DNA of 64,000 nt from Alphaproteobacteria bacterium (GCA_965221125.1 CBDCRW010000007.1:320001-384000), one strand, 5' to 3'. Shown: positions 22,183 to 63,948, counted from the first letter of the stretch. Numbers and translations are program-made. The notes: a model not told the origin generated them from the sequence alone.

Positions 22183-22824
22183 TTAGCGTCGGGCGCGGGC
22201 GTCGAGGTCCTTAGGCGGCGACGAGTCGCGGCGGATGCGGGGCGTCGCCGCGCCCGGAAAATTCCACAGGGTGAGCCAGCGGGCGACGGTGGCGTTCAGC
22301 GCGTCGTCGAGCAGGCGGCAGTCGGCGGCGACGGTCTCGTCGCGCACGTCGCGCTGCACCTCGGCGGTGCCGCGCCAGGGCCCCATGTCGGTGGTGGCGG
22401 ACTGGCCCAGGATCGTGGTGGCGATGGCGCGGTCGAGGTAGGCGACGAAGGCCTGGAAGTCGCCGCCGGCGCGGCGCGCGCTCTCGACGATCTCGATCTC
22501 CTGCCCCTCGGGCAGGATGACGCCGAGGCTGGTGGCGAAGGACTGTACGAGGTCGAGCAGGTCGGCCTTCTGCTCGGCGCTGGCGTTGCGCGGATAGGTG
22601 CCCTTGACGCCGGGCGCGCCGAATTTTTCGAGCGCGACGGACCAGAACTTGAGCCCGTGGCGCTTGAGCCAGACCGGCCAGAAGCACCAGCGCGCGAGCC
22701 CCGGCCCGTGCGGCAGGTCGCCGTGCTCGCCGGGGCGGCGGAGGATCACGAACTTGCCCGCCGGCACGCGCGCGCGGGAGGGAGGCAGCAGCCGGCGGAG
22801 CCGCCCGGCGAGACCGGGCGCCAT
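22183..22824 (-). pseudogene. Mu gp29-like portal protein (DUF935), internal fragment
   Basis: GLARWCFWPVWLKR…LEKFGAP…GTY, ILGQSATTD, NFPGA. Only 213 aa, lacking both ends of a typical portal. Confidence 0.75.
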
Positions 22825-22910
22825 CAGGCGGGGCCTCGGGTCGAGGGCAGGGAAGCGGAGGATCGGGCGTTCATCATGGCCCGATCATCGCGGCCCTCGC
22901 GCGCCCTGTG

Positions 22911-22930
22911 CACCGCACCATGGTGCGGGG
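22911..22930 (-). promoter_or_regulatory. Phage late-promoter palindrome copy 2 (putative Mor/C-type activator site)
   Basis: CCCCGCACCATGGTGCGGTG, 33 nt before ATG 22877. Confidence 0.65.
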
Positions 22931-22954
22931 CGAGGGCGGCGCTGGGCGTAAGGG

Positions 22955-24304
22955 CTACATGCCGTCCGCCGCGGGTTCCGGCGGCTGGTAGAAGATGAAG
23001 TCCGTCTCGTCCAGGTCTTCGATATCGAAGTTCTCCAGCGCGATGGTCCTGCCGCCGTGCTCGTGCAGGTCGATGGTGACGAACGAGCCAAGCTGGACCA
23101 TGGTCAGGTCTGCAAAGCCCGAGATGGATTCGAGCGCGCTGAGGTCGATCTTGTCCTCGCCATCGGTGAAGTCGGTGATCGTGTCGCTGCCGTGGCCGGT
23201 GAAGTAGGCGAAGGTGTCGGCGCCGGACCCGCCCGTCAGCGTGTCCGTGCCGGTGCCGCCGCTGAGCCAGTCGTCGCCTTCGCCGCCATTGAGCGTGTCG
23301 CGCCCCTCGCCGCCCATCAGACGGTCGGCGCTGGCACCGCCCGCGAGCGTGTCGTTGCCTTCGCCGCCCAGGATCCAGTCTTCGCCGCCGCCCCCGTCGA
23401 GCGTGTCGTCGCCCTCACCGCCGAAGATGAAGTCGGCGCGTCCGTCTGCGACCAGGGTGTCGTCGCCAGGGCTGCCGACATAAGTGGCGGTGCCGGGAAC
23501 GTAGAAACCCACTTCTTCGAACTGTTCTCCCGCGGGGAATTCGGGGTACGGCAGCCAGAACATGTCTTCGCTGAGGTATGCCGCCTTGACGTTGCGAAGC
23601 GTGATCGTTCCGCCGCCCCAGGGGCTCAGGTCGATCACCGCATCCCGGCCGTTGTCAGCCGCGTCGATACGCGCGCTCAACTCCGCCCAGGTGATCGGTG
23701 TGCCCAATGCCCGGAGGTCCAGTATGTCCTCGTAGCCGCGAAAATCGAAGATCGTGTCGTTTCCGTTGAGGGCGTGGAAATGGAAGACGTCGCTGCCGTC
23801 GCCGCCCGACATGCGATCGTCGCCCGCTCCGCCGATGATCCAGTCGTTACCAGCGCCGCCGTACAGTCGGTCCTCGCCGTCGCCGCCGGCGACGAAATCG
23901 TTCCCGCCGGAGGCGTCGATGAAGTCGTTGCCGGCGTCGCCGGTCAGCCAGTCGTCCCCGACAGTGCCCAGGATGTCGTCGTTGCCGGTGCCGCCGCGGG
24001 CGACGGCCTGACGACCCGTGGCGTAGATCATGTCGTCGCCGCTGCCACCCATGAAGAAATCGTCGCCGTTCCCCGTCAGGTAGTCGTCGCCGCTTCCGCC
24101 GAGGAGGAAGGCGTTGTCGCCGCCTCGATAGGTCGCCCTGTCGTCTCCCCCGGCGAGGTCGAACACGGCGAAGACCTCGCTGCCGTCAAACGTCTCGCCG
24201 GTCTGGGCGCCGACGTAGAGCCCGAGCGGGTCGCCCCCTTGCGCTCTGCTGTCGTGCTGGCCAGTGCTTGCGTCGGCTTCGCTCTCGTCCGTCATGGCTC
24301 GCAT
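22955..24304 (-). CDS. RTX (hemolysin-type Ca-binding) repeat protein, probable type I secretion substrate
   Basis: Two arrays of GGxGxD nonapeptides, each followed by DTIxDF…D.IDL; no signal peptide. Confidence 0.88.
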   Translation of the reverse strand: MRAMTDESEADASTGQHDSRAQGGDPLGLYVGAQTGETFDGSEVFAVFDLAGGDDRATYRGGDNAFLLGGSGDDYLTGNGDDFFMGGSGDDMIYATGRQAVARGGTGNDDILGTVGDDWLTGDAGNDFIDASGGNDFVAGGDGEDRLYGGAGNDWIIGGAGDDRMSGGDGSDVFHFHALNGNDTIFDFRGYEDILDLRALGTPITWAELSARIDAADNGRDAVIDLSPWGGGTITLRNVKAAYLSEDMFWLPYPEFPAGEQFEEVGFYVPGTATYVGSPGDDTLVADGRADFIFGGEGDDTLDGGGGEDWILGGEGNDTLAGGASADRLMGGEGRDTLNGGEGDDWLSGGTGTDTLTGGSGADTFAYFTGHGSDTITDFTDGEDKIDLSALESISGFADLTMVQLGSFVTIDLHEHGGRTIALENFDIEDLDETDFIFYQPPEPAADGM

Positions 24305-24503
24305 CCTCTTCGCGTCGCGATCCTCGCTTTCGGGCTCTGCCGCGCGGCGCGTGGGGCGGATCGGTCAGAGCCGGCACCGCGCCGGGCGGGGCCTCATGAA
24401 AAGGATGTGTGAACGCCAAAATATTGGGTCAAATGACATTTTATGCAGTGATCTATTGGAATTTCTGATGTGCCGGCGCTCCTTCCGTGGGGATGGCCGG
24501 CGC

Positions 24504-25868
24504 TCAATAGAAGCCGGCGAGGGTGGCGGCGCGCGGGCCGGCGCTGGCGCCGCCCACGGCCGGGGCGCTCTCGCGGGCGGCTGTGCAGGCCAAGGCAATC
24601 GCCCAGAAGCGGTCGGCGTGGCCGTCCGTGCCCGAGCGCTCCGCCATGAGGCGCGGCGCTCCCGTCGGTCCCGCCTCGGCGCGGACGGAATGGAGGTCGC
24701 GGCGGAGCTCGGCATCGGGCGGCAGGCGTAGGCGCCGGTCCTCCACCGCTTCCCGCAGCGCCGTGGCGACGTCGAGCCGGCGCGGCCCGGTCATGAGCAC
24801 GCCGTCGACGACGGTGCGCCCGAGATCCTCCTGCAGCTGCTCCACCACGGCCTCGCCCATGCCGGTCTGGTCCACGGCGATGCGGGCGGGCCCGTAGTGC
24901 GCCGCGAGCGCGCCCACGATCGCCCGCTGCTGGCTGAACGGGATGCCGTGGCGCACCACCAGCTCGCGCAGCCAGAGCACGTCGCCCACGCGCTCCAGCA
25001 CCGCGGCGACCCAGAGATCGCGGCGCCGCGCCACGTCCACCCCGATCGCGGCAGCTCCGCCCGCGAAGGCGGCCGGGTCGCCTGCCCCGGACTCCTCGCA
25101 GGCGCGGATCGCCTCCCAGCCGAGCCAAGCGCCCGCGCCGGCGGCGGGGATGCAGTCCAGCTCCTCGCCTGCGTGCGTGCCGTATTCCGCCCGGAGCGCC
25201 GCCTCCCACGCTGCCTCGGCCTCGGCCGTGGGCGGCTGGCCCTGGGCCGCGGCGATAGGGCTGAAGAGGCCCTGCTCCAGCGCCTGCTTGAGCGTGATGC
25301 GATGCAGCGAGCCGGGCCTGGCGCCGTCGCGCAGATCGCGGCAGAGGGTGGCGAAGGGATTGGCCTCGCCGTTGTGGCTGCTGATCACGTGCGCGCGCCC
25401 GCCCCAGACGCGGAAGGCCATCGCCGCCTTCAGCACCTGGCCGAGATCGTCGACGAAGGCGGCCTCGTCGATGATGGCGAGGTCGCCGGGCCGGCCCCTT
25501 GAGCGGAAGGCGCGGGGCGCCGAGGTCATGGCGAGGATCTCGTGGCCCGAGGCGAAGGCGATGCGGAAGACGTAGACGCCCCGCCCGCCGTCGTCGATCA
25601 GGGTCTCGCCCAAGGTGTCCGCGCCCATCTGCAGCGCGTGCGCCCAGCCGGCGCAGTCCTCGATGAAGCCGCGCGTCATCTCCCGGTTGTAGGCCTGGTA
25701 GTAGACGTTGCCGCCGGCCGGCGCGCCCGCGTGCATCACCGCGTCGTAGGCTTCCGCCCAGGAGATGCCGACGCGCCTGGCCTTCTCGATCACCTTGAAG
25801 CCGGCGGCGTCCGCCACCCAGCGGGCCTGATAGGGGAGGAGGTTGGGGAGCGGACGCTTTCGATTCAC
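24504..25868 (-). CDS. terL: Mu gp28-like terminase large subunit
   Basis: LLPYQ, KARRVGISW, IIDEAAF, ISSHNG, IGVDVARRRD, HADRFWAIALA. GTG start 25868 inferred. Confidence 0.9.
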   Translation of the reverse strand: MNRKRPLPNLLPYQARWVADAAGFKVIEKARRVGISWAEAYDAVMHAGAPAGGNVYYQAYNREMTRGFIEDCAGWAHALQMGADTLGETLIDDGGRGVYVFRIAFASGHEILAMTSAPRAFRSRGRPGDLAIIDEAAFVDDLGQVLKAAMAFRVWGGRAHVISSHNGEANPFATLCRDLRDGARPGSLHRITLKQALEQGLFSPIAAAQGQPPTAEAEAAWEAALRAEYGTHAGEELDCIPAAGAGAWLGWEAIRACEESGAGDPAAFAGGAAAIGVDVARRRDLWVAAVLERVGDVLWLRELVVRHGIPFSQQRAIVGALAAHYGPARIAVDQTGMGEAVVEQLQEDLGRTVVDGVLMTGPRRLDVATALREAVEDRRLRLPPDAELRRDLHSVRAEAGPTGAPRLMAERSGTDGHADRFWAIALACTAARESAPAVGGASAGPRAATLAGFY

Positions 25869-25910
25869 GGTCTTTCGGTCGCCATGCGCTTGCCCCACTG
25901 CGATCGTTCC

Positions 25911-26025
25911 CCCCACCTCACCCCGGCCCTCTCCTCCCCGGCGGGGAGGAGAGGGAGAAAGGGCGGCGCCGACTTGCGTTCCCCCTCTGCCCCTTTGGGG
26001 CGGAGGGGGACAGGGGGAGGTGGGG
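25911..26025. repeat. Double-hairpin REP-like element (CCCCACCTC…GAGGTGGGG)
   Basis: Same structure at 32602-32716 and 63949-63991, and inside the three CTAG MITEs. Confidence 0.85.
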
Positions 26026-26103
26026 TCGCGCAGGCACGAAGCGGCGTGCGCGCTGAGAAGAGCCTGTCATGCCCGCAAGATGACTGCGTCCGGCGCCGGC
26101 GGC

Positions 26104-26123
26104 CATCGCACCAAGGTGCGGGG
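26104..26123 (-). promoter_or_regulatory. Phage late-promoter palindrome copy 3
   Basis: CCCCGCACCTTGGTGCGATG, 33 nt before ATG 26070, upstream of terL. Confidence 0.6.
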
Positions 26124-26231
26124 CGCGCAGCGCTCGGCCGGTGGCCGAGGCGCACCGCATATGTGTTGAACCCCTCACCGCTGATATGGAACACTGTCCG
26201 AATACACCGAAAAAAATTATGGAGACGACCG

Positions 26232-27881: not shown

Positions 27882-27931
27882 GTCATGGGCGGAACCGGCG
27901 TGGCTCCCGAAGAGGCGGGCCGGCGGGCCGC

Positions 27932-39662: not shown

Positions 39663-40196
39663 TCAGGGCGCCCCCCGCATGTAGCGCCGCGCGGCGCTGG
39701 GGGAGAGGGCGAGGCGGGCCGCGATCTCGGCGGCCGTCGCCCCGGCGGCGGCGAGGTGGAGCGCACAGGCGCGCCTGGCGCGTGGCAGGTAGACGCTGCA
39801 GCCGCCGAGATAGTCCGCGACCTTGAGCGCCGTGCCCTCCGCTTCCAGCAGGCGGGCCAAGGGGTGGTCCGGGTGGCGCGCGAGGTGAAGCGGCTTCGGG
39901 ATGTGCACCTCGCGCCCGCCCCAGGCCAATGCCATCGCGATCGCGGTGGGCCGGCCTGCGACGTCCTCGATCTCTTCCAGAATGCCGGGGAGCGTGCCTG
40001 CGTGGTCCCTAATCGATCGTCTCCGAGGTGTGCATGGCTGCCGCGCGGGCGAGGCCCGGTGCGGGCGGAGTCGCAGGATGCGCCGGGCGGCGGCCGAGCG
40101 CTTTCTCGCGCGGTGCGCCGGCCTTGCGGATGCACGCGCCGAGGTGGCGGATCGGCTCGGCACGTGCTGCGGGCCGGCGCGGCGTCCGTTCCTCAT
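39663..40196 (-). CDS. Mor/C-like phage transcription activator
   Basis: LPGILEEI…WGGREVHIP…GGCSVYLP plus C-terminal HTH (AAEIAARLALSPSAARRY). Start uncertain; ATGA-coupled start at 40196. Confidence 0.7.
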   Translation of the reverse strand: MRNGRRAGPQHVPSRSATSARASARPAHRARKRSAAARRILRLRPHRASPARQPCTPRRRSIRDHAGTLPGILEEIEDVAGRPTAIAMALAWGGREVHIPKPLHLARHPDHPLARLLEAEGTALKVADYLGGCSVYLPRARRACALHLAAAGATAAEIAARLALSPSAARRYMRGAP

Positions 40197-40735
40197 GCCG
40201 CCTCCGCCGGTGCTGCGTCGTCGAGCAGGGCGGCGACGACGCGGTCGAGATCGTTGCGCCCGGCGGCGATGGTGACCTCGTCCGTCGCCTTCTCGACGGT
40301 GACGCCGATCTGCGCCAGCTCGGCGGCCGGCAGCTTGCGCAGCGCGGCGCGGTCGAGCGTCTCCCGCACGCGGATCAGCGCGTCCGCTCGGTCGGGGAAG
40401 CGCTCGCGCAGCCGCCGGATCGCCTGCGCCTCGTCGCCCAGCGCCACGGCGCCCGGCTGCTTGCGGAGCCCGAACTTGACGCCGTCCACCGCGAGCGTTC
40501 GCGGGCTCACGAAGAGATCGGGGCGCGCCTGGATCGCGGCGCGCAGCGCGTCCTCCGACGCCGCCTGCTCGGCGATGCGGTTGCGGAGCGCGCGGAGGCG
40601 GCCGGCAAGCGCCTTCTGCTGCGACGCCTTGATGTCCTCGGCCAGCGCCTCCGTCGCTTGCCGTGCGGCGGCGAAGGTCCTGGCGAGGGCGACGATGTGG
40701 TCCATAGACGCCGGCGGTGCCGCAGGTCTGGTCAT
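40193..40735 (-). CDS. Mu Gam-like host-nuclease inhibitor / DNA end-binding protein
   Basis: Coiled coil, PDLFVSPRTL…GVKFGLRKQPG, IRVRETLDRAAL…IGV. Confidence 0.7.
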   Translation of the reverse strand: MTRPAAPPASMDHIVALARTFAAARQATEALAEDIKASQQKALAGRLRALRNRIAEQAASEDALRAAIQARPDLFVSPRTLAVDGVKFGLRKQPGAVALGDEAQAIRRLRERFPDRADALIRVRETLDRAALRKLPAAELAQIGVTVEKATDEVTIAAGRNDLDRVVAALLDDAAPAEAA

Positions 40736-40748
40736 CGGGGTCTCCCTT

Positions 40749-41006
40749 TCACTTTTCTTGAGAAATTTCGCTGGCAGGCGCCGGGCGGGGGATGCCGGCG
40801 GGCCAGTCGCGGCCGTCGGGCCATCGCTCGGACGCGCGGCGCAGGATGGTCTCGGCGCGCCGCGCGGTGATGCTGGCGCCGGCGGCGACGCGGTCCACCG
40901 TGTCGCCGCTGCCGGTGAGCAGGCGCGAGGCGTAGGAGACGGAGATGCCGCGCGCCGCCGCGAAGGATCGGATCAGGGTGATGAGCAGTTGATCGCCGTG
41001 CACCAT
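40749..41006 (-). CDS. Cro/Ner-like small DNA-binding protein
   Basis: Divergent from the S24 repressor; helical N-terminus, WPxxxxWPAGIPRP tail. Confidence 0.65.
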   Translation of the reverse strand: MVHGDQLLITLIRSFAAARGISVSYASRLLTGSGDTVDRVAAGASITARRAETILRRASERWPDGRDWPAGIPRPAPASEISQEK

Positions 41007-41015
41007 CGAACACAT

Positions 41016-41080
41016 ATGCACGAACACGCATGATCGAATCAAGCATTTTCATGCACGAACAGTTGTGCTATATTGTGCAC
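41016..41080. promoter_or_regulatory. Lysis/lysogeny switch: operator repeats and extended -10
   Basis: ATGCACGAACA at 41016 and 41051; TGcTATATT (41066-41074) 6 nt before ATG 41081. Confidence 0.6.
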
Positions 41081-41974
41081 ATGGCGAACGCGACTCGACC
41101 GAGCGAGCAGATCCGCCACGCCGTGCGCGAGGCCCTGGCGGCGGCCGGCGTGGGCGCGCGCCGCTTCGAGTCCGCCCACGGGCTCAGGCCCTGGGCGCTG
41201 CGCGGCATCCTCGATCCCACCCGCGAGCAGGCGCCCTCGGTGGACCGCGCGGCCGAGATCTGCGCGGCGCTCGGGCTGACGCTCTCCATCGAGCCGGCCG
41301 CCGCGTCGCGCGCGGGCGAGGGGGATGACGCGGCGCGCGCGGCGCTGTCGGAGCCGAAGGCCGCTGCCTGGGGCGGCGCCGCGCAGGTCTCGCCGCCAGC
41401 GGCGGTGCCTGTGGGCGGCCTCGAGGGGGCGGTGCAGGCGCTGGTGCGGCTGGTGGCGCGCGCCGGGGGCGATCCGATCCCGGACGAGCTGCGCGCGCCG
41501 CCGAGCGCGCGTCTCGCCAGCGCCGATGCGCGGCCGGTCGCGGCGGCCAACGACGACGGCGTGACCCCCGGCGCGCGCTCGGTGGGAACCCGCGAGGTCG
41601 AGGCCGCGGCGGGCGGCGGCGCGGTCAATCTCGACGAGGCGCCGGTCAAGGGGCCGGTCTGGTTCCGCCGCGACTGGCTCGACGGCCACGGCATCGACCC
41701 CACGCTCTCGGTGGTGATCTCGGTGCGGGGCGAGTCGATGGAGCCGACGCTGCCGGCCGGCTCCAAAATCCTGGTGGACCGCACGCGCACCCGGCGCCGG
41801 GCCGGGCGCATCTTCGTGGTCACCACGGAGGAGGGGCTGGTGGTGAAGCGGCTGGAGCGGCGCGGGCGGCAGTGGTTCCTCGCCAGCGATCACCCGTCGT
41901 GGGAGGCGGTGCCCTGGCCGCGCGAGGCTGAGGTGGTGGGCGAGGTGCGCTGGGCCTCGCGGACCTTCGCGTGA
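41081..41974 (+). CDS. CI-like phage repressor with S24 peptidase domain
   Basis: N-terminal HTH, AAAGGG cleavage region, VRGESMEP (Ser), VVKRL (Lys). Confidence 0.88.
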   Translation: MANATRPSEQIRHAVREALAAAGVGARRFESAHGLRPWALRGILDPTREQAPSVDRAAEICAALGLTLSIEPAAASRAGEGDDAARAALSEPKAAAWGGAAQVSPPAAVPVGGLEGAVQALVRLVARAGGDPIPDELRAPPSARLASADARPVAAANDDGVTPGARSVGTREVEAAAGGGAVNLDEAPVKGPVWFRRDWLDGHGIDPTLSVVISVRGESMEPTLPAGSKILVDRTRTRRRAGRIFVVTTEEGLVVKRLERRGRQWFLASDHPSWEAVPWPREAEVVGEVRWASRTFA

Positions 41975-42522
41975 TGGCCCGCGCGGCCCTGATCGTCGCC
42001 TTCGCCGCGGTCGTGCTGGCGGCGTGCAGCCCGGCCACGCACGTCGACGGGCACAAGATACGCGCCGGCGCGGCGTCGGCCGACGCCCTGCACGAGGGCG
42101 CGCCGGAGTGGTTCGCCGCGTGGTGGGGCGACTACCGGCGGCACGCAGGGAACGGCTACGCGGTGCTCGCCCTCGACCGCAACGGGCAGGGCGGCTGGTA
42201 CGTCTACTGCGGCACCGTCGGCTGCCACGTCCTCGACCACGTCTCGGTCGGGGCGATCAGGGACGTCCACTACAGGTATCCGGCGCTGGAGCACTGCCGC
42301 GAGGCGGTCGCGAAGGCCGGCTCCGCCACGGCACCGGACTGCGCCATCTACGCGATCCGAGGCACGATCGTCTGGCAGGGTCCGCTGCCGTGGGAGGGCG
42401 CCGGAGATTCCGCGATGCCCTCCGGGAAGCACGCAGCCACCGGCGCCACGGCCGATGTCGTGGGCCCGAGCATGGCGCTCGACATGCTCGCGTTCTGGCG
42501 CGTGAAGTGGTCGGCGGACTGA
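41971..42522 (+). CDS. Cys-containing lipoprotein, unknown function
   Basis: Lipobox LAAC; GTGA overlap with the repressor. Confidence 0.7.
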   Translation: MMARAALIVAFAAVVLAACSPATHVDGHKIRAGAASADALHEGAPEWFAAWWGDYRRHAGNGYAVLALDRNGQGGWYVYCGTVGCHVLDHVSVGAIRDVHYRYPALEHCREAVAKAGSATAPDCAIYAIRGTIVWQGPLPWEGAGDSAMPSGKHAATGATADVVGPSMALDMLAFWRVKWSAD

Positions 42523-42833: not shown

Positions 42834-42853
42834 CACCGGACCATGGTGCGGTG
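42834..42853 (+). promoter_or_regulatory. Phage late-promoter palindrome copy 1
   Basis: CACCGGACCATGGTGCGGTG; -10 CATGAT at 42875; ATG 42887. Confidence 0.65.
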
Positions 42854-42886
42854 CACGGGCCGGGCGGGCGCGCCCATGATCGCCCC

Positions 42887-43375
42887 ATGCAACGGGCGAT
42901 CCTCGAGCGGCAGCACGAAAGCGACCAGGGCACGCTGGGGCTCCTGAGCGGCCCCGGCCTTGCGCCCGTCTTCGTCATGGAGCCGCCCTGGCGCGGCAAT
43001 GCGCGCAACCGCTCCTGCATCCCCGCCGGGCTCTACGAGGTGGTGCCGCACCTCTCGCCGCGCCACCGCCGCTGCCTGCTGGTGACGCAGGTGCCGGGCC
43101 GCAGCCACATCCTCTTCCATGCCGGCAACCTCGGCGGCGACACGGAGCGCGGCTGGAAGACCCACACGCAAGGCTGCCTGCTGCCGGGCCTCCGCCGCGG
43201 GCGCATGACCGTGGACGGGCGCCGCCAGGCGGCGGTGCTCGCCTCGCGCACGGCCTTCCGCCACCTCATGGACTGGAGCGCGGGGCGGCCCTTCGTATTG
43301 GAGATCAACCCGCCCTCAAGCAGCGAAGCGACAGGGCGAACTCCGCCCTCAAGCAGCGAAGCGATAGGGCGATAA
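42887..43375 (+). CDS. DUF5675-type phage protein (putative endolysin)
   Basis: TLG…EPPW…SCIPAGLY…VPGRSHILFHAGN…TQGCLLPG; precedes a holin-like gene. Confidence 0.75.
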   Translation: MQRAILERQHESDQGTLGLLSGPGLAPVFVMEPPWRGNARNRSCIPAGLYEVVPHLSPRHRRCLLVTQVPGRSHILFHAGNLGGDTERGWKTHTQGCLLPGLRRGRMTVDGRRQAAVLASRTAFRHLMDWSAGRPFVLEINPPSSSEATGRTPPSSSEAIGR

Positions 43376-43385: not shown

Positions 43386-43913
43386 ATGCTTGAGACCCTC
43401 TTCAATCTCGGCGCCTCGGTGCTCACCGGCGGCGCGACCGGGCTGCTGGGCACGGCGCTTTCGGCGGTGGTGGACTTCTTCCAGTCGCGCCAGCGCCACG
43501 CCCAGGAGCTGGACCTGCGCCGGCTCGATATCGATCTGGCGCAGGCCGAGGCCGAGGGCGCCGCCGCGCACGCCGCCATCGAGGCCCGCGCCCAGCGCGA
43601 GCGGGCCGAGTGGGAGGCGCTCGAAGCCTCGTACCGGGAGGCCGGCCGGCGCTGGTCCCGCCCCGGCGAGGGCCGGCTCATGCAGTTCGTGGACGCCGTG
43701 CGGGGGCTTACGCGGCCGGCGCTCACCTGGAGCCTCTTCGCCCTGGTGGGCGCGATCTACTTCCTGCTGGGGGCTGCGGACATCACGACCGTGGGGCTCC
43801 GGCCCCGCATCGTCGAGACCGTGCTCTACCTCTTCACCGCCGCGATGCTCTGGTGGTTCGGCTCCCGTCAGATCGAGAAGCGGCGCGGCGCGCAAGGCGG
43901 GGCCGGCCGGTGA
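43386..43913 (+). CDS. Holin-like membrane protein
   Basis: AVRGLTRPALTW, two C-terminal TMs, WWFGSR. Confidence 0.7.
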   Translation: MLETLFNLGASVLTGGATGLLGTALSAVVDFFQSRQRHAQELDLRRLDIDLAQAEAEGAAAHAAIEARAQRERAEWEALEASYREAGRRWSRPGEGRLMQFVDAVRGLTRPALTWSLFALVGAIYFLLGAADITTVGLRPRIVETVLYLFTAAMLWWFGSRQIEKRRGAQGGAGR

Positions 43914-49316: not shown

Positions 49317-50485
49317 TCCGTCTCCTCGAAGAGCTCGCGGCCGATGAGCATGCGGCGGATCTCGCTGGTGCCGGCGCCGATCTCGTAGAGCTTGGCGTCG
49401 CGCAAGAGCCGGCCGGTGGCGAACTCGTTGACGTAGCCGTTGCCGCCCAGCGCCTGGATCGCCTCAAGCGCCATCCAGGTCGCCTTCTCGGCGGCGAAGA
49501 GGATGGCGCCGGCGGCGTCCTTGCGGCTGGTCTCGCCGCGATCGCAGGCCTGCGCCACGGCGTAGACGTAGGCGCGGGCCGCGTTCATGGTCGTGTACAT
49601 GTCGGCGATCTTGCCCTGCATGAGCTGGAAGGTGCCGATGGGCCGGCCGAACTGCCGGCGCTGGTGGACGTAGGGGAGCACGATGTCCATGCAGGCGCGC
49701 ATGATGCCCAAGGGGCCGGCCGCGAGCACCGCACGCTCGTAGTCGAGGCCGCTCATCAGCACGGCCACGCCGCCGCCGACCTCGCCGATCACGTTCTCCG
49801 CCGGCACCGCGCAGTCCTCGAACACCAGCTCGCAGGTGTTGGACCCGCGCATGCCGAGCTTGTCGAGTTTTTGGGCGGTAGAGAAGCCGGGCATGCCCTT
49901 CTCGACGAGGAAGGCGGTGATGCCCCGGCTGCCGGCATCGGGGTCCGTCTTGGCGTAGACCACGAGGACCTCGGCGTCCGGCCCGTTGGTGATCCACATT
50001 TTCGACCCGTTCAGCACGTAGCGCTCGCCGCGGCGTTCCGCGCGCGTGCGCATGCCGACCACGTCCGAGCCCGCGCCCGGCTCGCTCATGGCGAGCGCGC
50101 CGACGTGTTCGCCCGAGATCAGCCCGGGCAGGTAGCGGGCGCGCTGGGCGGGGGTGCCGTTGAGCCGGATCTGGTTCACGCAGAGGTTGGAGTGCGCGCC
50201 GTAGCTGAGGCCGACGGAGGCGGACGCGCGGCTCACCTCCTCCATGGCGACGCAGTGCTCCAGGTAGCCGAGGCCGCTGCCGCCCTCCTCCTCCTCCACG
50301 GTGAGCCCGAGCAGCCCGAGGTCGCCGAGCCGGGGCCAGAGGTCGCGCGGGAACTCGTTGCTCGTGTCGATCTCTTCGGCGCGGGGCGCGATCTCGGCCT
50401 GCGCGAAGCTCTCGACCGACGAGCGGATCATGTCCGCCGTCTCGCCCAGCCCGAAGTCGAGGCCCGGCATTCGGTTGGAGGTCAT
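49313..50485 (-). CDS. ivd: Isovaleryl-CoA dehydrogenase
   Basis: [29 protein letters not shown]. Confidence 0.93.
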
Positions 50486-50653
50486 TGCTGCTCCGTTTGC
50501 GTCGGCAACGCCCAATTCAGCCCAAGCAGAGACCATTCAATACTATCGCCTACTTTGGACACTGGTGATGGTTCAAGCATATTTTTGTGCACTCGAAAAG
50601 GCTCAAACAACGCATGTATCATTTATTCGGTACGCTCCATCCACTCAATGCAC

Positions 50654-51598
50654 TTAACCATTGCTCCTTAGATATTTAGCGACTGTCGCGAAGTGCTGTC
50701 GATTTGCCTCTAGGTCGACTACTTTGTAGAGTTCTTCACCAATACCACTTAACACCACTCCGTGAACTTTGACCTTGAATTGCTTTCCCTCTCCATCGCT
50801 AGAGAATAATCTGACACCTTTGCCAGCACAAAGAATTTCGCCTTGTGTCTCTCCTAAAACTGTGAACTCAACCCATGAATTGTAGTCAGGTATTATAAGC
50901 CTATTTTCCTGAAGAATGTTCAGGTCAAAGAATGAGATTCCAAAGTTTTTCAACGCATTACCCTGGGAGTTATTGCTAGCTGTTATTGCTATGTGACTCA
51001 AGTTTGGAATAACAAAAACCATATTACAAAGTTTTCGGAACAGGGCAGCCGCGTCGGTATCCATCATTCCGAGAGTTCTAACGGTTCGGAGAGAATATGT
51101 TCCTGGGCTCTCAATTTCTCCGGCTAAAATTTTTCCGAACGCCAGTTTCATTTCTTCGGAAGACCGTTGTCCTGCCTCGCTTCTGAGCGCCGCCAACCAG
51201 TCATCGTTCGGAACGCCCTGAGGTTCAGTCGTTGCTTCAGATTTGGACAATTGCTCAATAGCGATTCCTAGAACGTCCTCTACGATGACTTGTTCCTTCA
51301 GTATCTTCGTGGCGTGTTGCGCGTATGCTCTGGCAGCCAATTCGGAATTGGTCTTGAATTCGGTCGCTATGGATCGTGCAGCCTCAAGGCGCAGATGCCT
51401 TCTCGCTTCCGTTGTTGAGCGGATACTATCTGCAAATCCCTCCAAGTAAGCGACAGGAATATCCGTAACTCCATATATCAAATGACTAATTGCCTTTACT
51501 ATTCCCGGCTGCAGAAATCCTAAAATCCCAAGCTCCGAGAATAATGCAGCAATGCTGGTGCCTAGTTCTGCAGGTGGCTGTTCAGGCGTGCTCGACAT
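50654..51598 (-). CDS. DUF2806-like protein, low GC
   Basis: DDWL…SSEEM…GKILAGEIESPGTYSLRT; markedly AT-rich. Confidence 0.7.
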   Translation of the reverse strand: MSSTPEQPPAELGTSIAALFSELGILGFLQPGIVKAISHLIYGVTDIPVAYLEGFADSIRSTTEARRHLRLEAARSIATEFKTNSELAARAYAQHATKILKEQVIVEDVLGIAIEQLSKSEATTEPQGVPNDDWLAALRSEAGQRSSEEMKLAFGKILAGEIESPGTYSLRTVRTLGMMDTDAAALFRKLCNMVFVIPNLSHIAITASNNSQGNALKNFGISFFDLNILQENRLIIPDYNSWVEFTVLGETQGEILCAGKGVRLFSSDGEGKQFKVKVHGVVLSGIGEELYKVVDLEANRQHFATVAKYLRSNG

Positions 51599-51695
51599 TT
51601 TTCCCTCGGATAAACAGGTCTCGAATCTTGTAGTCTCTTGCAAGGCGTGTCTGACAATCCATATAATACGCATAACGCAGGGTGGGGTGAAGAGC

Positions 51696-51971
51696 ATGCA
51701 GCGGATCACGTCACGGGAGTTCCAGCGGAACTTCGGGCGGTGCCAGGACGATGCGCTGAAGGCGCCGCTGGCGATCACCCGAAACGGGAGGGACCGGCTC
51801 GTGATCCTCTCGGTCGATGAGTATGAGCGCCTGAAGCGGCGGGACCGTCAAGCGCTTGCCGTCGAAGACCTCTCGGACGAAGAGATCGAGGCGATAGCCC
51901 GTGCCGAGCCTCCGGCCGAAGCCGCACAGTACGATCATGAGCTGACGGGCGGGCATGGCGCGGATTCCTGA
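51696..51971 (+). CDS. Phd/YefM antitoxin
   Basis: REFQRNFG…AITRNGRDRLVILS. Confidence 0.85.
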   Translation: MQRITSREFQRNFGRCQDDALKAPLAITRNGRDRLVILSVDEYERLKRRDRQALAVEDLSDEEIEAIARAEPPAEAAQYDHELTGGHGADS

Positions 51972-52389
51972 TCCGCAGCCCGGCCTCGTCATCAGCTACG
52001 CTTATCTCTGGCAACGCGAAGCGGCCAGGGGTCGCCACGAGGGCACCAAGTACCGCCCTGCCGTTGTCGTGATGGGGGTGGAACACGACGACGCTCGCGG
52101 CAAGACGGTTCTCGTGGCGCCGATCACGCATCGTCAGCCTGAGCATACTTCGGCCGCGGTGGAGATACCGCCTCAGACCAAGCGACGCCTCGGCCTCGAC
52201 CCGGAGCGATCATGGATCATCGTATCGGAGGTGAACAGGTTCGAGTGGCCGGGGCCGGACCTTCTGCCGATCGCACCGGGTGAATGGGCCTACGGCATTC
52301 TTCCGGCAGGCCTCTTTCGGGCTGTTCGCAACCGCATTGCCGACACGGCGCGTAGACGCAAGCTCGCCCAAGTCAGACGCGAGCCGTGA
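51955..52389 (+). CDS. PemK/MazF-like toxin
   Basis: YAYLW…EGTKYRPAVV…VAPITH…NRFEWPG. Confidence 0.8.
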   Translation: MARIPDPQPGLVISYAYLWQREAARGRHEGTKYRPAVVVMGVEHDDARGKTVLVAPITHRQPEHTSAAVEIPPQTKRRLGLDPERSWIIVSEVNRFEWPGPDLLPIAPGEWAYGILPAGLFRAVRNRIADTARRRKLAQVRREP

Positions 52390-59470: not shown

Positions 59471-59494
59471 CCCCGGCCCAGTCTCTCCCTACGT

Positions 59495-59585
59495 CGTCAC
59501 GCCCGCACGCGTTGCGGGCATCCACATTCTTGTTCGGGGCTGCACGAACAACCCGTGGATGTCCGGGACGAGCCCGGCCGTGACG
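59495..59585. repeat. CGTC-type REP dimer between convergent genes
   Basis: CGTCACGCCCGC…GCGGGCATCC…GGATGTCCGGG…GTGACG. Confidence 0.7.
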
Positions 59586-59601
59586 TGATAGGGCGGCGCC
59601 C

Positions 59602-60288
59602 TCAGTCCTGAAACAGGCCTGCCTCCCTGAGGGAGACGTGGCGGGAGCGGCCGATCACCAGGTGATCGTGGACGGTGACGCCGAGCGTGGCGCCGGCCTT
59701 CGCGACCTCCCTGGTGAGCTCGATGTCGGCGCGCGACGGGCTGGGATCGCCCGAGGGGTGGTTGTGCACCAGGATGACGGCGCTCGCTCCGTGCTGGAGC
59801 GCGCGCTTGATGACCTCGCGCGGGTACAGCACCACGTGGTCGACCGTGCCGTGCTGCTGCTCCTCGTCGGCGATCAGCGTGTTGTGGCTGTCGAGAAAGA
59901 GCACGCGAAAGTGCTCGGTCTTCTTGTGGCCCAGCTGGGCCGAGCAGTAATCCAGCACCGCCTGCCACGTGCCGATGACCGGCCGGCCTCTCACCGCCTC
60001 CCGCAGCGTGCGCACGCCCAGCGCCTCGACGAGCTTGAGCGTGTGGACCACCGCATCGCCCACGCCGTCGACCTCCTTCAGCGCCTCCTTCTCGGCGCCG
60101 AGCACGCCGCCGACGGTGCCGAAGCGGTCCATCAGACGCTTGGCGAGCGGCTTGGTGTCGCCTCGGGGTATCGCGCGGAACAGCAGCAGCTCAAGCAGCT
60201 CGTAGTCGGGCAGGCCGTCGGCGCCCGTCTTGTCGAAGCGCTCGCGCAGCCGCTCGCGGTGGCCGTGATAGTGGGGCTTCTTCGCCAC
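59602..60288 (-). CDS. radC: RadC/JAB domain protein
   Basis: GHRERLRERF, HNHPSGDPSPS, DH. Confidence 0.93.
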   Translation of the reverse strand: MAKKPHYHGHRERLRERFDKTGADGLPDYELLELLLFRAIPRGDTKPLAKRLMDRFGTVGGVLGAEKEALKEVDGVGDAVVHTLKLVEALGVRTLREAVRGRPVIGTWQAVLDYCSAQLGHKKTEHFRVLFLDSHNTLIADEEQQHGTVDHVVLYPREVIKRALQHGASAVILVHNHPSGDPSPSRADIELTREVAKAGATLGVTVHDHLVIGRSRHVSLREAGLFQD

Positions 60289-60290
60289 CG

Positions 60291-61136
60291 TCAGGAATCG
60301 TAGGGGGGCTTGGTGTGCCCCAGCGGTGAGAGGGTGAAGATCTCGTAGCCCTCCTCGGTGACGCCGATGGTGTGCTCGAACTGGGCGGAGAGCGAGCGGT
60401 CCTTGGTGACCGCGGTCCAGCCGTCGCGCAGCAGCTTCACCTGCCAGCCGCCGAGATTGATCATCGGCTCCACCGTGAAGAACATGCCGGGTGCGAGCGT
60501 GGGCCCCGTGCCGGGCTCGCCGTAGTGCAGCACGTTCGGCGCGTCGTGGAAGATGCGCCCGATGCCGTGGCCGCAAAAGTCCCGCACCACGGCGCAGCGC
60601 TTGCCCTCGGCATAGCTCTGGATGGCGTGGCCAATGTCGCCGAGCCGCGCGCCGGGCCTCACCGCGTCGATGCCGCGCATCATGGCCTCGTAGGTGACGT
60701 CGACGAGCCGGCGCGCCTTCACGCTCGGCTGGCCGACGTAAAACATGCGGCTCGTGTCCCCGTGCCAGCCGTCGAGGATCACGGTCACGTCGATGTTCAC
60801 GATGTCGCCCTTCTGCAGCCGCTTGTCGCCGGGGATGCCGTGGCAGACGACGTGGTTGACCGAGGTGCAGATGGATTTCGGGTAGCCCCGATAGCCGAGC
60901 GGGGCCGGCACCGCGCCGTGGTCGACGATGTAGTCGTGGCAGAACGTGTCGAGGGTCTCCGTCGCGACGCCGGGCTCGACCATCGGCGTCAGCGCATCGA
61001 GCACCTCCGCCGCGAGGTGGCCGGCGTCGCGCATCGCCGCGAACGCGTCCGCGCCGTGGGTCTTGATGCTCCGCTCGATGACTTGCGCGCCACTACCGGA
61101 AGACACGGCTGGCCTCGCTCGCTCGGTTCGGTCCAC
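60291..61136 (-). CDS. map: Type I methionine aminopeptidase
   Basis: VVCHGIP, NIDVT, GHGIG, SAQFEHT. Start uncertain. Confidence 0.93.
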   Translation of the reverse strand: MDRTERARPAVSSGSGAQVIERSIKTHGADAFAAMRDAGHLAAEVLDALTPMVEPGVATETLDTFCHDYIVDHGAVPAPLGYRGYPKSICTSVNHVVCHGIPGDKRLQKGDIVNIDVTVILDGWHGDTSRMFYVGQPSVKARRLVDVTYEAMMRGIDAVRPGARLGDIGHAIQSYAEGKRCAVVRDFCGHGIGRIFHDAPNVLHYGEPGTGPTLAPGMFFTVEPMINLGGWQVKLLRDGWTAVTKDRSLSAQFEHTIGVTEEGYEIFTLSPLGHTKPPYDS

Positions 61137-61217
61137 GGACGCGGCCCGCAGAAGGCCCACCCGCCGCGCACAATCTAGTCGGTATCGCGCTCCGTTCAAT
61201 AGGACCGGAGCGGCAAT

Positions 61218-61922
61218 CTAGCCCAAGTCCTCGATCGGAAGCGGCCGGTCCACCGCGATGCCCTCCGGGCATAGCCGGCAGGCGTGGGCGAGGGCCTCCA
61301 CGCCGCTCGCACGCGCCTCTGCGAAGGCAGCGGCATAGACCGGGTCGATGTCGGCGGCCAGCGCGAAGCTCTCGCAGTCCTCGCGCTGCACGATGTAGAG
61401 CATCACGGCGCGGGCGCCGCCCTCGGCCACGGCCGCCAGCTCGCGCAGGTGCTTCGTGCCGCGCGCGGTCACGCTGTCGGGGAACGCGGCGACCGGGCCC
61501 CGCTTCAGGTGGACGTTCTTGACCTCGACGTAGCAGGCCGGCCGGCCCGACGCTCCGAGCACGAAATCCACGCGCGAGCGCTCGCCATACGGGACCTCGC
61601 GGCGGATCGTGTCGTAGCCAGAAAGCGGCGGGATCGCGCCGGCCGCCATGGCTTCCTCGGCGAGCCCGTTGGGCCGGCCGGCATTGACGCCCACCAGGCC
61701 ATCGCCGATTCGCACCATCTCCCAGCTGAAGGGGAGCTTCCGCTTCGGGTTCGCGGCGGGCGAGAGCCAGGTCTCGAGCCCTACGTCCACGAGCCCCGTC
61801 ATGGCGCCGGGGTTGGCAACGTGGGCGGTGACGGTGCTGCCGTCGCCCAGGCGGTGATCGCTGAGGAAGCGCTTGTAGCGCCTGACGAGCGTCGCGCGGC
61901 GGAGGGGGAGGGGGAATTTCAT
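61218..61922 (-). CDS. sfsA: DNA/RNA nuclease SfsA
   Basis: RRYKRFL, SRVDF, EVKNV, FPDSVTARGTKHL. Confidence 0.93.
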   Translation of the reverse strand: MKFPLPLRRATLVRRYKRFLSDHRLGDGSTVTAHVANPGAMTGLVDVGLETWLSPAANPKRKLPFSWEMVRIGDGLVGVNAGRPNGLAEEAMAAGAIPPLSGYDTIRREVPYGERSRVDFVLGASGRPACYVEVKNVHLKRGPVAAFPDSVTARGTKHLRELAAVAEGGARAVMLYIVQREDCESFALAADIDPVYAAAFAEARASGVEALAHACRLCPEGIAVDRPLPIEDLG

Positions 61923-62055
61923 GGGCGTCTCATAGGCCACGCTCCGGTCTCGCCTCAAGGGCCCCGCGCCATCGCGCCATGGCCGCGCCGCGCGCGCCGC
62001 TCTATGCTCTGCGCCGCCCCGCGCCCAATCGCACGCCCAACCGAGCAGCACCGTC

Positions 62056-62832
62056 ATGTCGGAAGCCCCCGTCACCGCCGCCCTGGTCGTCATCGGCAAC
62101 GAGATCCTCTCGGGCCGGACCAAGGACGTGAACGTCGCCTATCTCGCCCGCCAGCTCACGGCCATGGGCATCCAGCTCGCCGAGGTCCGCATGGTGCGGG
62201 ACGAGGAGCGCGCGATCATCGCCGCCGTCAACACGCTGCGCGCGGCGCACGACTACGTCTTCACCACGGGCGGCATCGGCCCCACGCACGACGACATCAC
62301 CAGCGAGTCGGTGGCGCGGGCCTTCAACCTGCCCTACCGCATCCACCCAGAGGCGAGGCGCATCCTGGTGGATTTTTATCGCGACACCGGGCGCGAGCTG
62401 AACGAGGCGCGCATGCGCATGGCGCACACGCCGGAGGGCGCGACGCTGATCGAGAACCCGGTGAGCCGGGCGCCGGGTTTTCGGGTCGAGAACGTCCACG
62501 TGCTGGCGGGCATTCCGGCCGTGATGCGCGCGATGTTCGAGAGCGTGGCGCCGACGCTGAAGGGCGGGCGCACGGTCAAGTCGCGCGAGATCGCCGTGCT
62601 GCTGGGCGAGGGCGACGTGGCCGCCCGCCTCGAAGGGCTGCAGGAGCGGTTCCCGTCGCTCGAGATCGGCAGCTACCCCTTCGTCCGCGACGGCAGCTTC
62701 GGCACGACGCTGGTCTTACGCGGCACCGACGAGGGCGAGATCGCGCAAGCCGGCGACGAGCTCTGCACCATCCTGCGCGAGCTCGGCGGCGATCCGGAAT
62801 CGCCGCCCGCGCCGCCGGCACCGATCGGTTGA
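62056..62832 (+). CDS. CinA-like molybdopterin-binding domain protein
   Basis: IGNEILSGRTKD, TGGIGPTHDDIT. Confidence 0.88.
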   Translation: MSEAPVTAALVVIGNEILSGRTKDVNVAYLARQLTAMGIQLAEVRMVRDEERAIIAAVNTLRAAHDYVFTTGGIGPTHDDITSESVARAFNLPYRIHPEARRILVDFYRDTGRELNEARMRMAHTPEGATLIENPVSRAPGFRVENVHVLAGIPAVMRAMFESVAPTLKGGRTVKSREIAVLLGEGDVAARLEGLQERFPSLEIGSYPFVRDGSFGTTLVLRGTDEGEIAQAGDELCTILRELGGDPESPPAPPAPIG

Positions 62833-62916
62833 GGCAGGCGCGCGGCTTTCCGCCAGCCGGCGGTGCCGCCTGCCGGCGGTTGCTGGAGGCCGCCCAGCTT
62901 CCTATCGTGTCCCTCA

Positions 62917-63003
62917 GCCCGCGTGGCGGAATTGGTAGACGCATCGGACTTAAAATCCGTTGGCCTTCGGGCCGTCCCGGTTCGAGTCCGGGCGCGGGCA
63001 CCA
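62917..63003 (+). tRNA. tRNA-Leu (anticodon TAA)
   Basis: GCCCGCG acceptor stem, loop CTTAAAA, long variable arm, GGTTCGAGTCC, encoded CCA. Confidence 0.96.
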
Positions 63004-63026
63004 GCGCTCCGTAATCAGAATCCCGA

Positions 63027-63902
63027 ATGAGCGATCCGCCCGACAGCTACACGCAGCATGCGGCTCTCTTCACCAGGGTCTACGACCTGAACGATCCGAG
63101 CCCCTATTTCTCCACGCTGAGGCCGACCGGCTACCGGATGCCGGTGGCGCTGGCGGGCGCGCTGCGGGCGGTCCATGCGCCGCTCCGTGCCGCGCGCGGC
63201 GCGGAGGAGCGCCCGCGCGTGCTGGACTTCGCCTGCGGCTACGGCGTCATCGGCGCGCTGCTGCGCCACGACATCGCCATGCCGGAGATCTACGCCCGGT
63301 ACGGCGAGCGGCAGTGGCAGCCGGAGGACGGCCGGCGCTATTGGGAGGGGGATGCCGCGTTCTTCGGCGCCCGGCGGGCGGAGCGGGCTGCGTTCGAGAT
63401 CGGCGGTATCGACATTGCGGGGAACGCGCTCGACTACGCGTCCGCCTTGGGCTTCGTCGATCGGGCCTTTCACGAAGACCTCGTGGAGGACGCGCCGAGC
63501 GACGCCGTGCGGGACTTCCTTCGCGGCGTGGACCTGGTGGTCGAGAGCGGCGCGTTGGGCGTGATGCTGCCGGCCGCGTTCGCGCGGGTTCTCGATGGCG
63601 CCGGCGAGGCGCGGCCCTGGTTTCTCTACAGCCCCCGCCCCGACGTGAACTGGTCCGCGCTGAACGCGCTGTGGGCCGAGCGGGGCTACCGGGCGGAAAG
63701 CGTCTGCTCGCGGCCGGTGCGCTATCGCAGGCCGCTGGACGAGCAGGAGCGGGCGGACATGCTTCGCCGCTCGCGCGGGTTCGGCAAGGCGGACGAGACC
63801 ATCGTCCGCGACGGCTACTTCCTGGTCGACATGACCCTGGCGCGGCCCGAGGCCGATACCGGCAACCCGCCGATCGCCGCGCTGCGCCGGAGTTACGACT
63901 AA
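63027..63902 (+). CDS. Class I SAM-dependent methyltransferase-like protein
   Basis: VLDFACGYG, GIDIA. Confidence 0.7.
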   Translation: MSDPPDSYTQHAALFTRVYDLNDPSPYFSTLRPTGYRMPVALAGALRAVHAPLRAARGAEERPRVLDFACGYGVIGALLRHDIAMPEIYARYGERQWQPEDGRRYWEGDAAFFGARRAERAAFEIGGIDIAGNALDYASALGFVDRAFHEDLVEDAPSDAVRDFLRGVDLVVESGALGVMLPAAFARVLDGAGEARPWFLYSPRPDVNWSALNALWAERGYRAESVCSRPVRYRRPLDEQERADMLRRSRGFGKADETIVRDGYFLVDMTLARPEADTGNPPIAALRRSYD

Positions 63903-63918
63903 GGCGGCCCTGCCCACT

Positions 63919-63938
63919 CCCCGGACGATGGTGCGGTG
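63919..63938 (+). promoter_or_regulatory. Phage late-promoter palindrome copy 4
   Basis: CCCCGGACGATGGTGCGGTG followed by CAC, as in copies 1 and 2. Confidence 0.55.
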
Positions 63939-63948
63939 CACGGTGCTG

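Follow-up and report, generated by a model that had tools for sequence, protein, structure and literature searches.

Mor-type promoter-like heads and head-TerS-array units in an alphaproteobacterial genus: a candidate host-fixed regulon derived from a Mu-like phage

For the phage Mu activator Mor it was reported that a dimer contacts a pair of inverted repeats contained in a 16-bp element whose centre is at -43.5 (PMC4390567), and for the Mu activator C binding to a 16-bp imperfect dyad was described, which is likewise centred at -43.5 and overlaps the -35 region (PMC2582627). The Mu late promoters were found to possess -10 hexamers and no typical -35 element, with the bases just downstream of the dyad being of importance (PMC2582627). 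A second system relevant here is that of pac sites which are made up of phased short repeats and bound by rings of the small terminase subunit (see PMC4737164). The work reported here concerns a stretch of 64,000 nucleotides (C7:320001-384000, hereafter the window) from the genome of an alphaproteobacterium (GCA_965221125.1, labelled G000; 4.58 Mb on 7 contigs, about 70% GC), in which genes of Mu-like phage origin are accompanied by a promoter-like element consisting of a dyad, a -10 hexamer and an ATG, which will be referred to as the head. Judged from sequence, the heads probably constitute a genus-wide regulon of the Mor type which derives from a Mu-like phage, became fixed in the host and is dominated by units of a gene of the Mu gp27 family, resembling the small terminase subunit (TerS), and a repeat array, whereby the dyad would serve as the activator site. 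Congeners are labelled G001, G002 and so on; the genus set comprises 21 genomes, and the motif was counted in 18 congeners and in 12 genomes of other genera.

A sequence-only reading of the window had reported four copies of a 20-bp palindrome, and these proved to be real and non-random, as a degenerate 20-mer gives six strand-matches at four loci against 0.04 expected, with 0 of 100 shuffles reaching six matches. All four copies are intergenic, being located between open reading frames (ORFs) supported by the GC content of third codon positions (GC3), on which the gene calls within the window are based. Behind the motif of the first three copies there is a -10-like hexamer at a distance of 21 nt and an ATG at exactly 33 nt, just as had been noted. 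The head at 42834-42889 (+) comprises the motif (42834-42853) with the 16-bp dyad CCGGACCATGGTGCGG (42836-42851), the hexamer CATGAT (42875-42880) and the ATG (42887-42889), which is the start codon of a DUF5675 gene; a head with its ATG at +33 is found directly 5' of DUF5675 in 8/8 congener loci that hold this gene. On the minus strand, one complete head is located 5' of terL, the gene of the large terminase subunit (26068-26123; dyad within 26104-26123, CATCTT at 26082-26077, ATG at 26070-26068), and another one 5' of a portal gene fragment (22875-22930; motif at 22911-22930, GATGAT at 22889-22884, ATG at 22877-22875). Hence the earlier assignment of the motif to lysis genes, portal fragment and terminase stands, the genes concerned being DUF5675 with a holin-like partner, a Portal_Mu fragment and TerL, while the detail regarding the ATG had to be corrected: it opens the DUF5675 ORF itself, a 17-codon upstream ORF (uORF) that ends in a TGA overlapping with the portal ATG (22824), and a 50-codon frame which runs into a repeat preceding terL. 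In G031, the orthologous head stands directly 5' of terL, with a 7-codon uORF whose stop codon overlaps the terL GTG, and in G004, G009, G015 and G018 the portal gene behind the orthologous head is of full length. The fourth copy (63919-63938, +) is a cut head of which the dyad is present and neither -10 hexamer nor ATG; a complete head lies just beyond the end of the window at C7:384112. The repeat that separates the terL head from terL and cuts the fourth head, beginning 9 nt downstream of the latter, is a GC-rich element resembling repetitive extragenic palindromic (REP) sequences, CCCCACCTCCCCCTGTCCCCCTCC...GGGGGAACGCAAGT, which contains hairpins, is located at 25930-26030 and 63939-64000 of the window and occurs in dozens of copies per genome.

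The count of four holds for the window but not for the genome, where about 39 complete heads were identified, so that the idea of one regulon of four sites has to be given up. An oriented 18-mer with at most three mismatches, combined with an ATG at +33, returned 41 sites in G000, two of which were dropped (a counted palindrome read in reverse and a 3-mismatch site inside a gene); a stricter 14-mer (at most one mismatch) gave 60 oriented matches, 37 of them with the ATG at exactly +33. While the ATG was itself a selection criterion for the 39 heads, the -10 positions were not, and here A at -11 and T at -7 are present in 39/39 and G at -14 in 38/39 heads. Counted from the A of the ATG as +1, the presumed start site located 7 nt after the -10 hexamer, the dyad spans -51 to -36 and is centred at -43.5. 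The complete head furthermore shows a conserved flank, TGCACGG, and the -10 hexamer CAnnAT at -12 to -7; it lacks a typical -35 hexamer, the bases at this place being TGCACG, which belong to the conserved flank. That the motif is laid out like a site for an activator of the Mor/C type, as had been proposed, is hence borne out by dyad centre, presence of a -10 and lack of a -35, and this layout is shared with the Mu promoters Pm, Plys, PI, PP and Pmom, for which Mor and C act on a 16-bp dyad at -43.5 that overlaps the -35 region and is combined with a clear -10 and no typical -35. As in Mu, a small protein, here a candidate activator with a putative C-terminal helix-turn-helix (HTH), is encoded nearby. 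Unlike in Mu, about 39 heads are dispersed on the chromosome, there is neither a complete phage nor a Mu A/B transposase next to these genes, and most heads lead TerS/array units instead of late operons. Within the genus, a 17-mer (at most one mismatch) has 9-65 matches in 15/18 congeners, but none in the 12 genomes from outside the genus, and with the reversed control no genome was matched; according to their titles, contigs matching the motif belong to bins of uncultured Alphaproteobacteria or Rhodospirillales, with scattered single chance matches elsewhere. The heads are not promoters of host genes: in no more than 21/39 cases does the gene that follows share the strand of the head (18/39 are opposite), and mostly it is at least 300 nt away. 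Two of the heads, at C5:2908 and C7:85301, possess flanks that are identical for at least several hundred bases; one of the two lies near a contig end, and the identity stems from a recent duplication or else from a repeat in the assembly.

Considering the palindrome by itself, it may be asked whether it is an activator site at all or rather a structural repeat, such as a REP-like hairpin or a terminator, or else a target of some unrelated regulator of the host, its proximity to phage genes being incidental. A perfect hairpin could be formed by the palindrome, in several copies 6-27 nt separate it from the stop codon of the gene upstream, and other repeats (the REP-like one and R270, an element described below) often abut it, all of which would suit such an explanation. 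The fixed spacing to the A-11/T-7 hexamer and to the ATG would not, no T-run was seen by eye after the palindrome, and no Rfam family was matched, so this explanation is very unlikely, the more so in view of two further findings. Firstly, dyad and spacing recur in prophages: in those of G006 and G002, a dyad with the core GGACCATGGTCC follows immediately after the mor stop codon and is succeeded by CACAAT or TACCAT at the same spacing as in the heads. Secondly, the motif is tied to genomes that bear a Mor-like gene, which is present in 13/15 motif-bearing congeners and in none of the three motif-less ones; the two exceptions, G001 and G007, are both incomplete (fragmented, 92% and 67% complete). 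In all, a match was obtained in 16/21 genomes for the Mor-like protein, in 17/21 for terL and in 18/21 for the gp27 family, and the three complete motif-less genomes (G012, G016, G017) are also devoid of Mor-like, terL and gp27 matches.

The prophages also bear on the origin of the system. Mu-like prophages or remnants were found in G013 (L112, contig C6), G006 (L241, C24) and G002 (L242, C1) with the gene order mor - lysis - gp27 - terL - portal - F, and a related dyad follows mor in the G013 prophage as well. In the G002 prophage the order is mor - DUF5675 - orf175 - terL with a gp27 match (C1:208198-208713) just before terL, and therefore the DUF5675 pair of the window represents the cassette which in that type of phage occupies the position after mor, i.e., the lysis position. 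While the ATG at +1 of the heads predicts a leaderless transcript, the prophage versions possess a leader and a ribosome-binding site; therefore the leaderless form appears to be the derived one. Among 20 gp27 loci, the long gp27 frame is opened by the head ATG in 14, whereas in 5/20 a uORF of 12-37 codons ends with a stop codon overlapping the gp27 ATG and 1/20 is uncoupled.

A candidate for the activator is encoded within the window at 39663-40196 (-; core 39666-40010, orthologues of 115 aa). That it is Mor-like, as stated by the sequence-only reading, is supported by a match to phrog_836, "late transcriptional activator" (E 2.1e-13), and the ratio of nonsynonymous to synonymous substitution rates (dN/dS), which for all genes given here was determined against up to 8 congeners, is 0.11-0.15. 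Precomputed assignments list the Pfam family Mor (PF08765) for many of 56 close relatives. Searches of the PDB by sequence with the Mor-like, DUF5675 and gp27 proteins gave no meaningful match.

Most heads lead a gp27 gene or its remnant together with a repeat array, a class of loci which the earlier note did not cover. In all copies outside the window the head is followed by 140-310 nt of spacer, after which come tandem units of 10-11 bp and, last, a tail rich in A. Seventeen copies make up one family, and the 18 A-type copies that were aligned extend about 310 nt from the dyad. The A-type array unit reads GCCACTTTGTG or TTGGGCCAC, the T-type unit CTTGTCTCGG or CTTATCTCGG, and 30/35 arrays with at least three units have a head on the same strand within 600 nt upstream. 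In three longer units of G000 the gp27 ORF is intact; it belongs to the Mu gp27 family (PF11985, 58.6 bits with a cut-off of 28, E 1.3e-15) and also matches phrog_426, "terminase small subunit" (E 4.8e-19). The gp27 copies keep an N-terminal HTH as well as a C-terminal motif, GLSPE..IR..VEG, which they have in common with prophage TerS. The three copies of G000 stand alone amid host genes (CobW and DUF1826 on one side, a GATase1-like gene on the other) and not beside terL, whereas in the prophages of G013 and G002 gp27 is located before terL. Each of the two A-type gp27 copies (77-81% identical to one another, 81% in the tblastn alignment) is followed by an A-type array, and the T-type copy, which is 62-66% identical to the A-type pair, by a T-type array. 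In the short A-type copies ~17 codons are left from the start of gp27; these copies are therefore internal-deletion derivatives.

Across the genus, gp27 matches number 1-15 per genome, and a head was found 65-146 nt upstream of gp27 in 28/29 loci examined. Downstream of gp27 an array was recognised by eye in most loci with enough sequence, often of a C-type, AATCCCACTT; the gp27 copy of the G002 prophage is followed by terL and not by an array, and several other loci are without a clear one. The T-type arrays are confined to G000 (30 matches), G032 (8) and G007 (1) among the 21 genomes, and the closest T-type gp27 outside G000, with 68% identity, is that of G032. For the complete genome G004, 30 heads were examined out of 47 matches: 18 lead to C-type arrays, 4 to gp27, 4 to other sequence with an ATG (two of these being the DUF5675 and portal heads) and 4 are without ATG. 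When compared with Rfam, four A-type units yielded nothing relevant, only chance miRNA and speF matches at E >= 0.03, and a region comprising R270 and a head yielded zero matches.

SPP1 and P22 are the systems with which putative pac sites may be compared. Like pac sites, the arrays described here contain 3-12 direct repeats with a period of 10-11 bp and are located beside, or overlap, the 3' end of a TerS-like gene. Unlike pac sites, dozens of them are far from any terL and their types differ between species, and both binding and cleavage of the arrays are putative here. A structure prediction for the complex of TerL with gp27 lends weak support to a working pair, as it scored 0.41 compared with 0.00 for the best of three controls, with runs agreeing in at least 24% of contacts and a partner predicted local distance difference test score (pLDDT) of at least 53. 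The mark used is reached by 58/80 solved complexes and 2/110 mismatched pairs, yet at scores of at most 0.60 it is reached by only 7/80 solved complexes and by both of the passing mismatched pairs; the prediction was made with the author's own alignments, and, this being a textbook pair, the pass may reflect likeness to solved complexes.

The fixation of phage genes in the host can be judged from the window genes themselves. Besides mor, they comprise the DUF5675 gene at 42887-43375 (+; 162 aa, a candidate peptidoglycan peptidase or lysin; PF18925 E 1.2e-24, phrog_1501, dN/dS 0.23-0.55), DUF5675 having been described as C82-peptidase-like in a 2026 preprint, and its membrane or holin-like partner orf175 at 43386-43913 (+; phrog_6637 E 2.7e-20, a weak holin match to phrog_3427, dN/dS 0.17-0.28), which adjoins DUF5675 in congeners as well as in the G002 prophage. 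A repressor candidate with a C-terminal Peptidase_S24 domain of the self-cleaving LexA/CI type is encoded at 41030-41974 (+; PF00717 E 2.3e-15, phrog_4 "transcriptional repressor", dN/dS 0.27-0.34) and syntenic in congeners, as is the conserved orf183 at 41971-42522 (+) between repressor and head (56-72% identity, dN/dS 0.37-0.48), for which zero Pfam or PHROG matches were obtained. A protein resembling the DNA-end-binding Mu Gam is encoded at 40193-40735 (-; PF07352 E 3.3e-8, phrog_491, dN/dS 0.24-0.36). TerL is encoded at 24504-25916 (-; Terminase_6C E 1.1e-18, phrog_2, dN/dS 0.18-0.31) and has orthologues of 76-91% identity in 14 other genomes, besides partial or less identical matches, nuclease and Walker motifs being kept. 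The idea that TerL might be an ATPase-dead nuclease, which came from a GKT to GIS difference to prophage TerL, was dropped, since K-A-R-R-(V/I)-G-(I/L)-S is found in all 14 orthologues covering this position and in 6 more distant paralogues; we take this motif to resemble the deviant Walker A of the lambda gpA type with its upstream lysine. The Portal_Mu fragment at 22183-22824 (-; 213 aa) covers profile positions 114-314 of 336, whereas at the orthologous locus of congeners the ORF has 412-414 aa and the whole Pfam domain (profile 2-335), with a congener dN/dS of 0.12-0.26.

Altogether, dN/dS amounts to 0.11-0.55 across the eight phage genes as compared to 0.04-0.34 for ten host genes. Of the mor loci examined, 7/9 show in synteny the block ferritin / mor - gam <-> S24 - orf183 - head - DUF5675 - orf175, the other two being a rearranged locus in G031 and the separate prophage of G013. 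Synteny was likewise seen in 4/4 loci examined for the block host gene / head - terL - head - portal / host gene. Simple decay or strain-specific genes, which would have spoken against a domesticated regulon, are hence not what was found: the layout is kept in congeners and dN/dS is well below 1. The placement of phage genes amid host operons was likewise verified, as hydantoinase A and B, a racemase, a dipeptide-type ABC transporter, an HTH-cupin regulator and ferritin are encoded between terL and the mor cluster. Moreover, contigs of the runs X1 and X2, which stem from one sample that possibly is the source, span 22716-24988 with zero differences, and therefore the local layout is not an artefact of the assembly of this metagenome-assembled genome alone. 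A protein of 449 aa with calcium-binding RTX repeats and a serralysin C-terminal-like domain is encoded between terL and the portal head (22955-24304, -), and this insertion, which counts against essentiality, is also present in at least G004; matches in G014 and G005 give dN/dS values of 0.37-0.40.

Purifying selection on terL, portal, lysis-like genes, repressor and activator, together with one promoter type common to them, could also be explained by a multi-locus particle system, similar to a gene transfer agent (GTA) or a tailocin, or by a lysis system, which derives from a transposable phage and is induced as one regulon, as had been considered by the sequence-only reading. GTAs of the RcGTA type are alike in having phage-derived genes fixed in a lineage, at several loci and under purifying selection, presumably with one regulator. 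They differ in that here no capsid, protease or tail genes were found, but only terL, portal, TerS-like, lysis-like, Gam, repressor and activator genes, with the portal being broken in G000. The Mu-type major capsid (PF10124) has 0 matches in G000 and is absent from 20/21 genomes of the genus, the one match being in G006; the portal family PF04860 has 0 matches in a whole-genome search of G000, and the HK97-type capsid (PF05065) only a weak one (30.8 bits) in an unrelated, head-less island on C6 that is broken by insertion sequences (IS). Behind the 39 heads in G000 and the 30 examined in G004 no capsid or tail gene is recognisable (two of the "other" heads in G004 are unannotated), and the genes flanking terL and portal are host genes in 4/4 congeners examined. 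A particle-forming system is hence unsupported and extremely unlikely. The C6 island itself (L200, C6:772001-792000) is a decayed mobile element with primase-polymerase/VapE genes, an IS with a DDE transposase, the weak capsid match and a portal-like ORF that stays below the cut-off of PF04860; its pair of TniA-like (rve + Mu-transpos_C) and TniB-like genes shows domain matches identical to those of a pair at C5:251467-253595. Satellites such as SaPI (Staphylococcus aureus pathogenicity islands), PICI (phage-inducible chromosomal islands) and P4 are comparable insofar as a TerS-type gene and an adjacent candidate pac-like site stand behind a promoter of the phage late-activator type. In contrast to satellites, the units have about 1 kb and no integrase, replication or capsid-remodelling genes, and 3-15 gene-bearing copies plus dozens of ORF-less ones occur per genome, some of them at orthologous sites across species.

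To follow the history of the units, four loci were compared with the orthologous sites of five relatives, whereby C6:695771 was uninformative, as its flanks are not adjacent in the relatives. At two loci, G004 and G014 likewise hold a head and an array, flanked by the two host genes that flank the unit in G000, there with a C-type array instead of the T-type one. The fourth unit (C5:595590), by contrast, is missing from the orthologous site in 5/5 relatives, where its flanks are 0-73 nt apart as compared to 665 nt in G000. Taken together, the orthologous units and the one empty site imply that the units are long-lived yet occasionally gained or lost, with array types changing by lineage. No target-site duplication is recognisable at C5:595590, the one insertion examined, which is specific to G000, and the alignment of 18 A-type copies shows no terminal inverted repeats. 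Near this locus, a repeat of ~270 nt (R270; L158:477-745, C5:595277-595545) with terminal inverted repeats of ~28 bp, GCCCGCATTTCTCACCAAGG..., was noticed, which from its sequence looks like a classical miniature inverted-repeat transposable element (MITE), has 3-24 matches per related genome (5 genomes; 72-97% identity) and often directly abuts heads.

The empty site is one of several observations that weigh against a host-fixed Mor regulon, as it fits a selfish mobile repeat as well as function. The Mor-like protein of the window reaches 22.5 bits, short of the cut-off of 24.9 for Pfam Mor (PF08765), and its AlphaFold2 model (pLDDT 90.8) gave 0 Foldseek matches to the PDB at E <= 0.001, likenesses being restricted to the HTH region and Mor not being recovered; an intertwined dimer may be missed with a model of the monomer. 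The joint presence or absence of motif, Mor-like gene, terL and gp27 is suggestive only, because related congeners do not provide phylogenetically independent counts and the three genomes without all four may be one clade. Damage to packaging genes was also seen, as the portal is truncated in G000, the REP-like repeat lies there between terL and its head, and the terL gene of G008 is split; therefore these genes are dispensable in at least some lineages. The gp27 copies evolve fast, with dN/dS of 0.55-1.30 between copies, some of which may be decaying, and their HTH recognition region is similar across array types, hence specific binding of gp27 to its array is no more than putative.

From these data arises the main rival, namely that the unit of head, gp27 and array is a selfish dispersed repeat, mobile by itself, whose ~310-nt copies are MITE-like deletion derivatives and whose promoter features are baggage without function for the host, the conserved single-copy phage genes being a separate matter. 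Apart from the empty site and the gp27 substitution rates, the high and variable copy numbers (gp27 1-15, motif 9-65 per genome), the retention of both ends and of the first ~17 gp27 codons in the short copies and the seemingly random orientation towards neighbouring genes agree with it, and MITEs are alike in being intergenic and of ~310-350 nt, in occurring in both orientations, in having arisen from a gene-bearing unit through internal deletion and in being present or absent depending on the species. MITEs are unlike the units insofar as these show neither terminal inverted repeats nor a target duplication (one insertion) nor a transposase, and insofar as the units are bounded on one side by a promoter of the activator type and on the other by tandem repeats of 10-11 bp. 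A mere repeat would also leave unexplained why the -10 positions are kept in 39/39 heads (as is the ATG, the selection criterion), why 2/3 informative units have counterparts at the orthologous positions of G004 and G014, where head and array are kept and the array is of the type of that species, and why heads, Mor-like gene, terL and gp27 are present or absent together. The selfish repeat is compatible with much of the data and does not exclude the promoter reading, yet as an account of the whole it is unlikely.

Under the preferred reading of a Mor-type regulon, a dimer of the Mor-like protein (39666-40010) would bind to the dyad and recruit RNA polymerase, and transcription is predicted to start at the A of the ATG, yielding a leaderless transcript. 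The divergently encoded S24-type repressor may hold off expression of the Mor-like gene, by analogy with Mu and with repressors of the CI/LexA type. Within the window, the heads would thereby drive three phage-derived units (DUF5675 with the holin-like ORF, terL, and portal), while elsewhere about 35 small units would be transcribed, three of them with head, gp27 and array and about 30 ORF-less with head and array. The arrays are most likely pac-like and are predicted to be binding sites of the cognate gp27 variants. Extending this, a host-fixed terminase system might be switched by Mor, whereby an activator, either the own one or that of an infecting Mu-like phage, would trigger cutting or packaging by the TerS paralogues together with TerL and the portal at about 40 chromosomal sites; this is a speculative and distinctly unlikely proposal. 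Such a system could divert capsids to host DNA, i.e., act as a decoy defence which boosts transduction, or it could bring about fragmentation and release of the chromosome together with the DUF5675/holin-like lysis pair. In a bold variant of this idea, the units would spread via TerS/TerL breaks and their repair, hence as a terminase-based homing element.

Some further features of the window deserve mention. A frame at 40732-41052 (-; orf106) was considered as a Ner-like gene and rejected, as it has no Pfam or PHROG match and a dN/dS of 1.2-3.4 at very low dS; it probably is not coding in this frame, and the stretch may represent conserved regulatory DNA of the divergent early region. A dip of the GC content to 0.556, compared with ~0.70 elsewhere, occurs at 50001-52000 around a DUF2806 gene (50654-51778), and this stretch is likely foreign DNA. 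The sole match at Rfam gathering score within the window is a tRNA gene at 62917-63000 (+).

A domesticated phage regulon with Mor/C-type promoters is of a known kind, whereas the new and dominant part is the promoter-TerS-array unit multiplied across the chromosome, for which no description was found in the literature searched (supplements not covered). Defined pairs, namely the Mor-like protein with the dyad and the gp27 variants with the array types, are now on offer for binding studies. If the heads are live promoters of the Mor type, a phage late-gene switch would have been kept genus-wide and multiplied to about 40 sites per chromosome. If this holds true, it would represent a new route by which packaging parts of a phage become domesticated without a capsid, and it would bear on the entry of host DNA into phage particles, on satellite-like interference and on the origin of promoter-bearing repeats.

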